The notes under the pieces were generated by a model. It was not told where the DNA came from. It worked only from the letters and a program-made list of their open reading frames with translations, and searched no databases. The position numbers were made by a program, and so were the translations under genes. From an uncultured bacterium (GTDB lineage Bacteria; Acidobacteriota; HRBIN11; JAKEFK01): DNA of 64,000 nt. Each line of letters opens with the position of its first letter. The first letter of the stretch is position 1. Positions 40,157-50,149 of this stretch are shown one piece after another. Location of the stretch: the NCBI GenBank assembly GCA_963777505.1, contig CAVZQN010000001.1:608001-672000 (forward strand). Reading direction: 5' to 3'.

Positions 40157-40280
40157 TTTGTAGTAAGGTACGCAGTTCGGACGCATGTATGCGGCCGAAC
40201 AGTACCGTGAAAAGCAATGGCGCTGCTTCTCTTGCTTGCGGCACTGCTTCGCTCCGCTCAGCTGCGTGCCTTACTACAAA
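40157..40280. repeat. Structured MITE/REP-like element with 19-bp terminal inverted repeats
   Basis: TTTGTAGTAAGGTACGCAG ... CTGCGTGCCTTACTACAAA (18/19), internal hairpin GTTCGG-A-CGCAT..ATGCG-G-CCGAAC. Confidence 0.7.
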
Positions 40281-40285
40281 CATCT

Positions 40286-45486: not shown

Positions 45487-46125
45487 CTATTTTCTTAAAA
45501 TTACACGAGCCGGTGCTCCGTCCATATCTGATAATTTGAGTGGAAGACACGACATCTCGTAATCTCCTTCTTCAACTTCAGATAAATTTAGCCCTTCTAT
45601 GAGAATCACCTCGTTTCCCAACAAATAGCGATGGACGGGAAATTCTGTGTTGCCGTATTCTTCCACCGACAAATAGTCAAACCCGATCAGTTTAATTCCG
45701 TTCTCAACCAAATATATCGAGGCTTCAAGAGTCAGGTAAATGTATTTCCTTTGAAAATTCTTTTTGCTCCCCCAAAAAAGAGAATTACGGGTCTTGAAAA
45801 GAATTCGAAAATCATCCACACGGACAAGATTAGTCAACTCTGAGACATCTACCTTCGTTTTGTCATGAATTTCTACAACCCGCACACGACCATTCAGAAT
45901 TTCCAAGGGCAGCTCTGAAACAGTCGCTCCATCTTTCAAAAAATGTGACGGCGCATCAACATGCGTACCCGTATGATTGCCAAGCGAAATTTGATGCAAC
46001 TGATATTGATCGTTTTCAAGAGTTTTAAGCTGACGAGATTTGAAACGTGGATCACCGGGAAATGTATGCATCCCCATTCGAACATCCACACTAATATCGT
46101 AAATTCTTGATGACATGGAATTCAC
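45487..46125 (-). CDS. Cyclase family / kynurenine formamidase-like protein
   Basis: HTGTHVDAPSH, GFDYLSV, DGAPAR. Confidence 0.88.
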   Translation of the reverse strand: MNSMSSRIYDISVDVRMGMHTFPGDPRFKSRQLKTLENDQYQLHQISLGNHTGTHVDAPSHFLKDGATVSELPLEILNGRVRVVEIHDKTKVDVSELTNLVRVDDFRILFKTRNSLFWGSKKNFQRKYIYLTLEASIYLVENGIKLIGFDYLSVEEYGNTEFPVHRYLLGNEVILIEGLNLSEVEEGDYEMSCLPLKLSDMDGAPARVILRK

Positions 46126-46133
46126 TTAGCGAT

Positions 46134-46556
46134 TTATGGAATCAACTCTAGACGGTTGAAAAAGAATGGAATTTCAGTCGAGGCAGTCGCTTCGGCATCT
46201 GAGCCATGGATTACATTTTGCTCAACATTCGATGCTAAATCTTTCCGGATTGTGCCCTCTGCAGCTTTCGCAGGATCCGTTGCACCCATCAAAGTGCGAA
46301 GCCGCTCAATTGCATTCTCCCCTTCCAGCACCAATGGAACTATTGGACCTGAACTCATAAACTGAATCAGACTTTGGTAAAAAGGACGTTCTTTATGAAC
46401 AGCATAAAAAGCACCGGCTTGTTCTGACGAAAGTTGCACAATCTTCATTCCAACAATTCGGAAGCCTGCCGTTTCTAAACGTTTAACGACTTCACCGATC
46501 ACTTTTTGCCGGACTCCGTCCGGTTTCACTATGGCTAATGTTCTTTGCATTTTCAT
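46134..46556 (-). CDS. ndk: Nucleoside diphosphate kinase
   Basis: IVKPDG, MSSGP, GTIR, NVIHGSD. Confidence 0.97.
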   Translation of the reverse strand: MKMQRTLAIVKPDGVRQKVIGEVVKRLETAGFRIVGMKIVQLSSEQAGAFYAVHKERPFYQSLIQFMSSGPIVPLVLEGENAIERLRTLMGATDPAKAAEGTIRKDLASNVEQNVIHGSDAEATASTEIPFFFNRLELIP

Positions 46557-46580
46557 ACTCTCAACAGGATCATCTTTCGT

Positions 46581-47480
46581 TTATGTTTTATTGATTACTT
46601 TTTGTATGGTCGAACCTATATCTGCAGGACTAGGAGTCACTGTAACTCCTGCAGCTTCAAGAGCAGCGATTTTTGATGCTGCAGTTCCGGTACCTCCCGA
46701 GACAATCGCACCGGCATGACCCATCCGTTTATCGGCTGGCGCTGTTGTTCCTGCGATGAATGAAACCACCGGCTTTGTTACATTGCTACGAATAAAATCG
46801 GCAGCCTGTTCTTCCGCAGTACCTCCGATTTCGCCAATCATAACAATGGAAGTCGTTTCGGGATCCGATTGAAATAATTTCAACGCATCAATAAACGATG
46901 TGCCATTGATTGGATCACCGCCAATTCCAATGCATGTGGATTGTCCAAGATTCAGCGCACTCAATTGCCCTACTGCTTCATATGTCAGTGTCCCACTCCG
47001 GCTGACAACACCGACATTCCCTTGTTTATGGATGAAACCAGGCATGATTCCAATTTTGCATTTTCCAGGCGAAATGATTCCCGGACAATTTGGTCCAATT
47101 AATCGTGAATTCGATTCGTTCAAATGGCGCTTCACTTGAACCATATCGCGAACTGGAATTCCTTCTGTGATCGCAATAATCAATTCAATACCGGCATCCA
47201 TTGCTTCTAAAATTGCATCCGCTGCAAAAGCCGGCGGAACGAAAATAACGGAAACATTCGCCTGTTCTTTTTGAACGGCTTCACGAACTGTATTAAATAT
47301 TGGGATCGCCTTTTTGCTTGCAGGAACTTCAGTAAATTGGGTTCCACCTTTCCCCGGAGTTACTCCACCAACAATATTTGTTTGCGCATAATCCATGCAG
47401 TGAAATGTATGAAACTTCCCTTCTTTACCCGTAATGCCCTGCACTATGATGCGGGATTTTTCGTCCACTAATACGCTCAT
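46581..47480 (-). CDS. sucD: Succinyl-CoA ligase alpha subunit
   Basis: [28 protein letters not shown]. Confidence 0.97.
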
Positions 47481-47493
47481 CGTTGCTCCAATT

Positions 47494-47524
47494 GAGAATA
47501 GAGAATAGAAGATAGAGAATAGAA
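47494..47524. repeat. Heptamer array arm (GAGAATA-type), inverted partner of 47974..48004
   Basis: GAGAATA GAGAATA GAAGATA GAGAATA GAA. Confidence 0.85.
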
Positions 47525-47539
47525 AGAAATGCTTCCATA

Positions 47540-47925
47540 TTATTTAGAGCCTCGGCAAAAGTCTGAGGATTTATCAATCATTCCTCTAAGCATTCCTCCG
47601 ATCTGTTGCCATGACGTATCAAGGTCAGTAAATTGTTTCAGGCTTATGTATTTGCAATCTAGAGCATGATCTAGCCATGCTTGGGTTTCCATTGCTTCTC
47701 CTAGGCTTCATCTACTTTGTTCTTAAATGCCGCGACATAATATCGTCTGGCCCACGCTTCCGCGAGCATTGCATTTACTGCTCTTGATGACCGCCTGATT
47801 TGACTGACTAATGAATATTTTTCTTCCGAAGGAAATGAGCAAGTGACCCTTGATAGATTTCAGAAGAACTTGTGCGAGCACGTTGATAAACGTTAAGATC
47901 TTGAAAACTTTGAATTAAGGCCTAT
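47540..47925 (-). pseudogene. Four-helix-bundle protein (23S rRNA IVP / TIGR02436 / Avd-like) with about 3 indels; absent from ORF track
   Basis: TAAGGAGG RBS; reconstructed (M)ALIQSFQDLNVYQRA..FPSEEKYSLVSQIRRSSRAVNAMLAEAWARR..EAMETQAWLDHALDCKYI..IGGML..K*. Confidence 0.85.
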
Positions 47926-47973
47926 GATTTTTCCTCCTTAACTCCATCTCGCTATCCACCGCACCAACTCTCC

Positions 47974-48004
47974 TTCTATCCTCTATCTTCTATCCTCTAT
48001 CTTC
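47974..48004. repeat. Heptamer array arm (TATCCTC/TATCTTC), inverted partner of 47494..47524
   Basis: Reverse complement GAAGATA GAGGATA GAAGATA GAGGATA GAA matches the other arm at 27/31. Confidence 0.85.
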
Positions 48005-48019
48005 TCTGCTACTTATCCT

Positions 48020-49178
48020 CTACTTCGCTAAAGCAACTACTTTCTCTGCTCCATCCTTCATATTCTCCGCGATCATCAATTTAAGATTTGATTTCCGTAA
48101 AATCTCTTTACCTTGCTCAACGTTTGTACCTTCCATTCTCACGACAATGGGAAGCGTCATCTTCAATTCCGCAGCGGATTCAACAACACCTTGAGCAAGA
48201 ACATCGCAACGAAGAATGCCGCCGAAAATATTAATAAAGACAGCTTTTACTTCAGGATCCGATGTAAGAATTCGAAACGCATTTGTAATTTGATCCTTTT
48301 TTGCGCCGCCGCCAACATCTAAAAAGTTTGCAGGCTTTCCACCGGCAAGCTGAATAATGTCCATCGTTGCCATCGCAAGTCCTGCACCATTAACCATACA
48401 GCCGACGGTTCCATCCAATTTGACGTAATTCAAATTGTATTTGGAAGCTTCAACCTCAAAGGGATCCTCTTCACTGATATCTCGCAGTTCCAGAATGTCA
48501 CGATGGCGGAACATTGCATTGTCATCGAAGTTTATTTTCGCATCCAGCGCCAGCACATCACCCTGTTTCGTCAGGAGCAATGGATTGATTTCAGCGAGTG
48601 ATGCATCTTTTTCAATGAAGAGCCGAAATAATTCGGTAACAAAATGAATGCCTTTCTGAATACTTTCCGCAGGCAAACCCAATGAATACGCGATTGATCG
48701 TGCTTGATACGGCAGAAGACGTTCGCCTGCTACATGAATTCTCAAAATCTTTTCAGGCTTTTCTTTGGCAAGTGTTTCAATATCCATTCCACCTTCTGAA
48801 CTTGCCATGATTACAGGCATTGAAGCCTGACGGTCCAAAACAATTCCGAGATAATACTCTTTTGCTATATCCAATCCTTGTTCAACAAGAACTTTGTGAA
48901 CAATCTTACCTTCAGGACCAGTTTGCGGTGTGATCAGGGGTTTCCCTAATAACTCTTTCGCTTTTGCGGCAGCTTCATCCGGACTCTTCGCGATCTTGAT
49001 ACCGCCACCTTTTCCGCGGCCCGCCAGCATGAATTTGCGCTTTTACAACAACGACAGGTGTTCCGAGTTTTTGCGCGGCAGCTTTCGCTTCTTCAGGAGT
49101 TGTTGCAACAATCCCGTTTGGTACGGGAATTCCATAACCTCTGAAAAGTTCCTTTCCCTGATATTCATGAATTTTCAT
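48020..49178 (-). CDS. sucC: Succinyl-CoA ligase beta subunit, one frameshift near 49020
   Basis: [17 protein letters not shown] in one frame, RGKGGG..EINPL..NGAGLAM..NFLDVGG in the other. Confidence 0.95.
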
Positions 49179-49201
49179 GTTTCACCACAAAGGCACAAAG
49201 A

Positions 49202-50149
<948 letters not shown>

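Follow-up and report, generated by a model that had tools for sequence, protein, structure and literature searches.

What has come between sucC and sucD, the genes for the two subunits of succinyl-CoA synthetase, in this genome of an uncultured acidobacterium? The window, by which we mean the whole stretch of 64,000 nucleotides that was analyzed, carries on its minus strand mdh, sucC, a 539-bp spacer, sucD, and ndk, in this order. An inserted unit of about 510 bp had been proposed at this junction in the original prediction, and a unit of nearly that size is present. Its parts and its immediate neighbors are listed here in the direction of transcription. This genome is called G000 among the seven genomes of the family that were compared, and G001 is a genome of the same genus.

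48020..49178, minus strand: sucC, succinyl-CoA synthetase beta subunit, in the assembly two overlapping frames (48975-49178 and 48020-49030)
48020-48022, minus strand: sucC stop codon
47971..48019, minus strand: 5' arm, a heptamer array, (RATAGAR)n, purine-rich on the transcribed strand, beginning directly 3' of the sucC stop
47971-48000, minus strand: core of the 5' arm, pairing with the 3' arm
47926..47970, minus strand: leader between the 5' arm and the IVP gene, which aligns with the leaders of both G001 copies
47933-47940, minus strand: TAAGGAGG in the cassette leader
47540..47925, minus strand: broken PF05635/TIGR02436 four-helix-bundle (IVP/S23p) gene, three pieces in three frames, start codon disrupted
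~47832-47921, minus strand: gene piece A, 30 residues
47704-47835, minus strand: gene piece B, 44 residues, followed by TAG at 47701-47703
47540-47701, minus strand: gene piece C, 53 residues
47490..47527, minus strand: 3' arm, a heptamer array, pyrimidine-rich on the transcribed strand, adjoining the ribosome-binding site of sucD
47486-47489, minus strand: GGAG ribosome-binding site of sucD
46581..47480, minus strand: sucD, succinyl-CoA synthetase alpha subunit, intact, 299 aa, with its ATG at 47480

The spacer is framed by two arms that lie in inverted orientation, as had been foreseen. Both were recognized as period-7/14 tandem arrays by Tandem Repeats Finder, and a repeat search paired positions 47498-47527 with 47971-48000, giving 30-nt arms that are 90% complementary (27/30) and 443 nt apart. 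The inverted-repeat score of 45 compares with a mean of 14.5 (standard deviation, 2.0; maximum, 24) over 500 shuffles of the downstream end, corresponding to z=15. The element resembling a ribosome-binding site that had been assigned to the enclosed gene is also in place, in the leader.

The gene between the arms had been described as encoding a four-helix-bundle protein of about 128 aa, and of this description the family stands and the intact reading frame does not. PF05635 matches piece B at 7.2e-9 with 36.3 bits and piece C at 1.1e-5 with 26 bits (cut-off, 33.8), and TIGR02436 gives two matches, 1.4e-7 with 31.7 bits and 2.6e-6 with 27.6 bits, both of which exceed its 24-bit cut-off; each family is thus represented above its cut-off at this gene. 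Piece A, with 30 residues, matches no HMM when taken alone. A PF05635 scan of the whole genome gave 42.1 bits here, with a stop within the match. The uninterrupted open reading frame of about 110-135 aa that is usual for PF05635/TIGR02436 is absent from the sucCD copy, and the reconstructed protein masks at least three frame breaks. Piece A has a stop codon immediately upstream and lacks an ATG, GTG, or TTG start in its frame. In an alignment with both G001 copies, the sucCD gene shows extra bases at the start codon, a 2-base excess between pieces A and B, and a 1-base loss ahead of piece C. As assembled, the gene is non-functional.

The damage is concentrated, with three breaks in 390 bp compared to a single one noticed in about 17 kb of flanking and syntenic genes. 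That single break is in sucC, which in G001 is one 388-aa open reading frame; it lies near IHAGG/RGKGG (window 48975-49030), and a related-strain contig without one base at 49020 has the frame whole there. The sucC break may be an assembly error or specific to the strain, and if it is an error, part of the damage to the IVP gene could be an artifact too. There may be local assembly trouble at the cassette. Mere assembly noise nonetheless appears unlikely as an account of the damage, since just one other break was noticed in those 17 kb of syntenic genes. A related-strain contig of 151 nt spans sucD, the 3' arm, and the end of the gene (47449-47600) and misses the internal frame breaks; among the DNA sequencing runs, three carry only relatives, at shares of 0.05-0.07.

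The decay would appear to be recent. Between G000 and G001, four-fold degenerate sites in sucD, sucC, and ndk show only 35-37% identity and are hence saturated, whereas the cassette gene region is 68% identical, and 27 of the 28 columns that are invariant among 49 homologues are, judged by eye, still kept in the broken gene; together these argue for a gene that was broken only lately. The junction copy in G001 has one frame break, located elsewhere than the breaks in G000. A shared ancestral break, with a stop at the same place in both genomes, was considered and rejected because an alignment by eye puts the one-base losses at different nearby positions, and we take the breaks in the two genomes to be independent.

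Because the sucCD copy is broken, the fold was studied on the intact G001 protein, modeled with the 49 homologues. The model is a four-helix bundle (pLDDT 92.8) of four long helices and a short C-terminal one. Its best structural matches are the S23p proteins 2gsc, from Xanthomonas, and 2rld, from Bacteroides, with target-normalized TM scores of 0.80-0.94, and the sequence-level scores agree (6.6e-13 for 2rld and 1.6e-8 for 2gsc). The next recognizable relative after these two is Avd, the accessory protein of diversity-generating retroelements (DGRs): chain 4dwl_D, of the Bordetella phage DGR, superposes with a target-normalized TM score of 0.87 and an rmsd of 1.8, at a weak E-value. The matched 8ub* entries, which are DGR ribonucleoprotein structures, share the fold as well. 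The match to the Avd model NF033474 reaches 13.9 bits, far under the cut-off of 80, and the open reading frames listed around the sucCD cassette resemble the housekeeping genes sucC, sucD, ndk, and mdh, where an Avd gene would adjoin a reverse transcriptase with template and variable repeats. Homologues are conserved across phyla, with a mean column identity of 74% over the 49 sequences. To our knowledge, no function has been assigned to the S23p/IVP family. The solved entries 2gsc and 2rld, released in 2006-2007, have five chains each, and the Xanthomonas S23p protein forms a homopentameric ring, as cited in the text of Warrier et al. 2016 (PMC4990558).

Comparison of the sucC-sucD junction among relatives yielded both occupied and empty sites. 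The junction is occupied in three of the seven family genomes (G000, G001, and G004), and in the other four the two genes are adjacent, being 6-7 nt apart in G003, G005, and G006 and overlapping in G002. The cassette of G001 is at the same junction, and its arms also pair (L080, z 12.8). In G004, which represents another genus, an intact gene of 132 aa, framed by arms of the GATGGAR type, lies directly upstream of sucD. Its IVP protein is only 58% identical to that of G001, while SucD of this genome is 80% identical to the G004 protein and 85% to that of G001. A separate insertion in G004 fits these relationships equally well as old common descent followed by precise losses. With no transposase inside and empty relatives at hand, the unit has the properties of the discrete, transposase-free cassette that the original prediction placed at this operon junction, carrying a gene of the IVP family. 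Comparison of the occupied junctions of G000 and G001 with empty ones revealed no target-site duplication at the borders.

The G004 contig (L012) contains the start of sucD twice at 556-720, on either side of 10 N and with differing upstream sequences, one start being preceded by an arm of the IVP cassette and the other by (TTGATCT/TTGATTT)-like repeats. The double start may reflect two junction alleles in the population that were joined by the scaffolder.

G001 has a second copy 7 kb away, in inverted orientation, with an intact 130-aa gene and arms of its own. The orthologous place in G000 has no cassette, and it also lacks the asparaginase-like neighbor gene present at the G001 site, and so it does not qualify as a clean empty site. 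At the DNA level the two G001 copies share 82% identity, while the G000 copy shares 68-70% with either, which points to a duplication, move, or conversion after the two species split. Where cassette copies are compared, their likeness stops within the arrays. The intergenic sites involved also harbor other repeats: a palindromic repeat from another family, about 120 nt long, occurs in the window at 40160-40283 and in G000 at C6:446070-446170, both intergenic, and the orthologous G001 sites hold RATAGAR elements, namely, the second cassette and a hairpin (L093). From these positions, elements of more than one kind appear to occupy the same intergenic spots.

Among known systems, the S23p-bearing intervening sequence (IVS) of 23S rRNA comes closest. 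In Coxiella burnetii, according to the text of Warrier et al. 2016 (PMC4990558), RNase III cleaves the 28-bp terminal stem of the 23S IVS (helix 45); the 5' part of this IVS contains two to three GACAGAT heptamers in tandem ahead of the S23p start, and its S23p open reading frame is undergoing reductive evolution. As far as that text describes them, the IVSs of C. burnetii and also Leptospira share with the sucCD cassette an S23p/PF05635 gene on the sense strand within an inverted-repeat stem-loop, a size of about 430-540 nt, the lack of a transposase, and tandem heptamers in the 5' part whose number varies between strains; the decaying open reading frame is common to the cassette and the Coxiella IVS. 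Terminal inverted repeats closing a long stem around the insert are found here as well. Unlike the IVS, the cassette sits between two protein genes of an operon and not in an rRNA helix (Rfam gave no rRNA or any other match in 46000-49500), both of its arms consist wholly of periodic repeats, and the arm units also occur as many gene-less hairpins; moreover, RNase III cleavage is established for the IVS and would be expected for the cassette by analogy. Because the sucCD cassette lies outside rRNA, the location that defines an IVS, we class it as an IVS variant rather than as an IVS proper.

Other short repeats bear a more partial resemblance. Dispersed heptamers are known from several bacteria, the cyanobacterial STRR being one further example. 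The main text of Rehm et al. 2015 (PMC4692102) describes dispersed heptamer arrays, including convergent pairs, for Xanthomonas and Nostoc, with 70-75 convergent inverted pairs of GGGAATC arrays in Xanthomonas, and that of PMC4679880 describes TAACTGA repeats and dispersed heptamers in Beggiatoaceae and cyanobacteria. Such repeats are, as in the present case, intergenic 7-nt tandem arrays, often in convergent pairs able to form stem-loops and patchy across phyla; the sucCD arrays are unlike them in framing an S23p/IVP gene, a link that the main text of neither paper draws. MITEs and REP/BIME elements are likewise short, palindromic, intergenic, and present in many copies that vary in presence or absence between relatives, but the cassette arms consist of periodic arrays in place of unique terminal repeats. 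A MITE or other transposon with terminal inverted repeats is further disfavored by the lack of a target-site duplication at the borders and of a transposase inside the cassette. For REP/BIME with RAYT, Y1_Tnp genes occur at C4:1856189 and C4:954439, but the nearest (RATAGAR)n is about 12 kb from the first and there is none near the second.

These comparisons lead us to a reading that we consider probable, if short of assured: the spacer would be a decaying cassette of the IVS type, in which an S23p-family gene within inverted 7-nt arrays was inserted, is co-transcribed, forms a stem, and is processed by RNase III. The cassette, with arm-gene-arm as the mobile unit, would have entered the gap separating the sucC stop from the sucD ribosome-binding site prior to the split of the two sampled species of the genus, and constraint would have preserved the gene over most of the subsequent period, until its recent breakage in this genome. 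The cassette lacks promoter-like sites on the minus strand as well as terminator-like sites, and so it is probably transcribed together with sucC and sucD. In such a transcript the arms are predicted to pair into a stem of about 30-35 bp, looping the gene out and bringing the end of sucC beside the start of sucD. The stem would be a likely substrate for RNase III, the gene for which is present in this genome, by analogy with the S23p-bearing 23S rRNA intervening sequences. Cleavage would separate the cistrons and release the RNA of the gene, and in this way it would make an insertion within an operon tolerable. No candidate enzyme for movement was found, either within the cassette or in a genome-wide search limited to Y1_Tnp.

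How general is the association of gene and arms? For clade 1 we used the intact G001 protein as the query and found 58 loci at about 55-67% identity, in records labeled Verrucomicrobiota, Acidobacteriota, Planctomycetes, Binatia, KSB1, Salinibacter and relatives, Chloroflexi, and others. With two partial matches left out, 56 of the 58 loci were scored for inverted repeats joining the 160-nt flanks on the two sides of the gene (z>4). A flanking inverted repeat was detected at 45/56, nearly all of them GAGGATN-type heptamer arrays; in a rerun on 37 loci, 33/37 passed, compared to 2/37 and 1/37 (3/74) at controls offset by 1300 nt. The query for clade 2, which has many cyanobacterial members, including Nostoc, Scytonema, and Crocosphaera, was the C3 paralogue of this genome. 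Flanking inverted arrays, here of G-rich units, were found at 70 of the 78 assessable loci, with periods of 8 (47 loci), 9 (17), and 7 (3), and so the repeat period is not always seven. The family-wide occurrence of inverted arrays, which the original prediction had offered as a check, is therefore strongly borne out in both clades. Arm units of clade 2 (L102-L181) include GCAGGGGA, GGCAGGGGA, GGTGACAG, and GGGGACAA, many of them in Nostoc and other cyanobacteria, and these arms may overlap with G-rich repeats discussed in print as quadruplex-forming.

We conclude that an IVS-like architecture is not confined to rRNA; in full-text searches of the literature, we found no IVP genes between inverted periodic arrays outside rRNA. 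Nor is it confined to operons. The neighbors of 50 homologous cassettes, oriented roughly by naive calling of open reading frames (stop to stop, >=110 aa), are arranged ++ in 18 cases, +- in 14, -+ in 12, and -- in 6. With just 18/50 lying between co-oriented genes, many cassettes cannot depend on operon read-through.

The arrays are not special to the sucCD gene. This genome carries 58 (RATAGAR)n arrays, which fall into 37 clusters and are mostly gene-less hairpins. Adjacent arrays are paired in one order only, a purine arm and then a pyrimidine arm in 17 pairs and the reverse in 0, and 15 of the 17 pairs have a spacer of 3-19 nt and are gene-less hairpins. Four of the five PF05635 genes of the genome have significant arms (z 14.9, 6.7, 16.3, and 14.1), each with a unit of its own: RATAGAR, GCAGGGGA, GAAMGAT, and TCTGAAA. 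These four units top the lists of period-7 and period-8 tandem repeats of the genome, where only A-rich units of the AAAAATN type rank among them, and all four are dispersed, RATAGAR in 58 arrays and the other three units in 17, 14, and 10. That each arm unit is also dispersed without a gene suggests that the repeats and the IVP genes would stand in a relation either of parent and derivative or of protein and binding site. The fifth PF05635 gene (G000 C10:81249-81557; 121 aa, E 8e-10) is not flanked by inverted arrays (z 1.0) and may represent a different use of the fold.

The hairpins themselves come and go. We examined ten hairpin sites of G001, and at the 7 whose flanks both mapped to one place in G000, an array was present in 2 and missing in 5. 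A direct test of whether hairpins derive from cassettes came out negative: the 92-nt spacer of the hairpin at C6:430003-430157 had no likeness to the interior of any of the three cassettes.

The pairing of the arms offers a further view of what is conserved. At each of the three differences in the 30-nt pairing at the sucCD locus, the 5' arm has G where the complement of the 3' arm has A, giving G-U pairs in the minus-strand RNA, and a longer alignment of 36 columns favors minus-strand G-U by 5 to 1. The RNA of the minus strand has a predicted fold of -163 kcal/mol (z -4.46), closed by the arm stem, versus -129.4 kcal/mol (z -1.61) for the plus strand. The strand bias of G-U pairs that had been reported for this locus was therefore reproduced, but its reading as a general sign of selection on RNA was not: across 37 loci with strong arms, transitions number 85 with G-U in the sense RNA and 73 with G-U in the antisense RNA (p=0.38), next to 82 transversions, and by locus the split is 14 versus 16, with 7 ties. 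Given no general excess of sense G-U, nothing marks RNA rather than DNA as the level under selection.

The heptamers of these loci share the consensus R-A-T-N-G-A-R. In a pairing register chosen blind to N, the fourth position is complementary between arms in 60/156 columns (38%, compared to 27% expected; p=0.0015), whereas the other six positions are complementary in 1023/1095 (93%). What is conserved is thus a 6-nt core at a fixed spacing in both arms and not perfect pairing, and each repeat would often introduce one mismatch into the stem. Such a pattern is compatible with an imperfect stem, of RNA or DNA, or alternatively with a series of putative protein-binding sites. A Shine-Dalgarno and anti-Shine-Dalgarno reading of GAGGAT/ATCCTC was also tried and was rejected, since the TCTGAAA and GAAMGAT units of this genome misfit.

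On a larger scale, one may tentatively suppose, at some distance beyond the evidence for the sucCD locus, that S23p/IVP proteins are trans-acting partners of the hairpins made of 7-9-nt repeats, whether heptamer, STRR-like, or G-rich, that many bacterial genomes contain. The cassettes would be the autonomous elements and the hairpins their derivatives or targets, forming a class of mobile or self-propagating elements that has no classical transposase and is tolerated in operons and rRNA through looping-out from the transcript.

A portable regulator is a different and unlikely interpretation of the same partnership. The IVP protein would bind its own repeat arrays, as RNA or DNA, with the gene-less hairpins, in leaders and at gene junctions, as its regulon and the arms serving autoregulation; the cassette would then be no selfish insert. 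The repeated 6-nt core with its one free position does resemble a row of binding sites, and one genome holds four genes with four units, each of them dispersed (the 17, 14, 10, and 58 arrays given above); the cross-phylum conservation of the proteins (74% over 49 sequences) and the crystallization of solved homologues with 5 chains each are in keeping with it. Against a regulon, however, about 17 paired (RATAGAR)n hairpins persist although the only cognate gene is broken, and hairpins come and go between congeners, with 5/7 of the mapped G001 sites having no array in G000.

It is more doubtful still that the gene alone moved, for example by recombination between dispersed arms, into the loop of a pre-existing REP-like hairpin, a course of events that we regard as improbable. 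Gene-less hairpins of the same polarity are certainly common (17 pairs versus 0 reversed, 15 of them with 3-19-nt spacers), and the likeness of cassette copies does end within the arrays, but across phyla the type of unit tracks the protein clade and not the host, GAGGATN going with clade 1 and 8-9-nt G-rich units with clade 2, as expected if the arms travel with the gene. There is also no such hairpin in G000 at the second site of G001.

Least of all do we credit, as highly improbable, that the host keeps the stem for sucCD, the paired arms preserving the closeness of the sucC stop and the sucD start and thereby translational coupling: this would account for arms that survive longer than the gene, still pairing 27/30 here and also pairing in the congener G001 (L080, z 12.8), and it suits both the genes lying 6-7 nt apart or overlapping in empty relatives and the arms running from the sucC stop to the sucD ribosome-binding site, but it is pure inference, arms so short may simply lack the time to decay, and the same architecture also occurs in non-operon contexts.

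If gene and repeats belong together, two matters become testable at the bench at once. The heptamer repeats of bacteria have been described repeatedly without explanation, a function for S23p/IVP proteins is likewise lacking, and the system would combine a small protein with a defined repeat and with cultured carriers, of which Nostoc, Crocosphaera, and Salinivenus appear among the homologue records. The sucCD copy is a natural experiment of its own, in which the arms persist and the gene decays. Annotators should expect short inserts of the IVS-like type within conserved operons.

Two further features of the hairpins were observed. At C4:1516660-1516745 of G000 there is an inverted (AAAAATN)n heptamer hairpin where G001 (L100) has a GATNGAR hairpin; units of the AAAAATN type rank with the most frequent period-7 repeats in this genome, and no cognate IVP gene was seen for them. 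In addition, a perfect TATAAT is found within 20 nt outside the hairpin end in 3/34 flanks, compared to about 0.05 expected from its frequency in the genome. Four cases of TATAAT near hairpins were noted by eye, e.g., C11:11537-11622, C3:345348-345447, C4:857891-857955, and C4:1569518-1569565, and the motif may be an outward-facing -10 element or may reflect a preference for sites before promoters.
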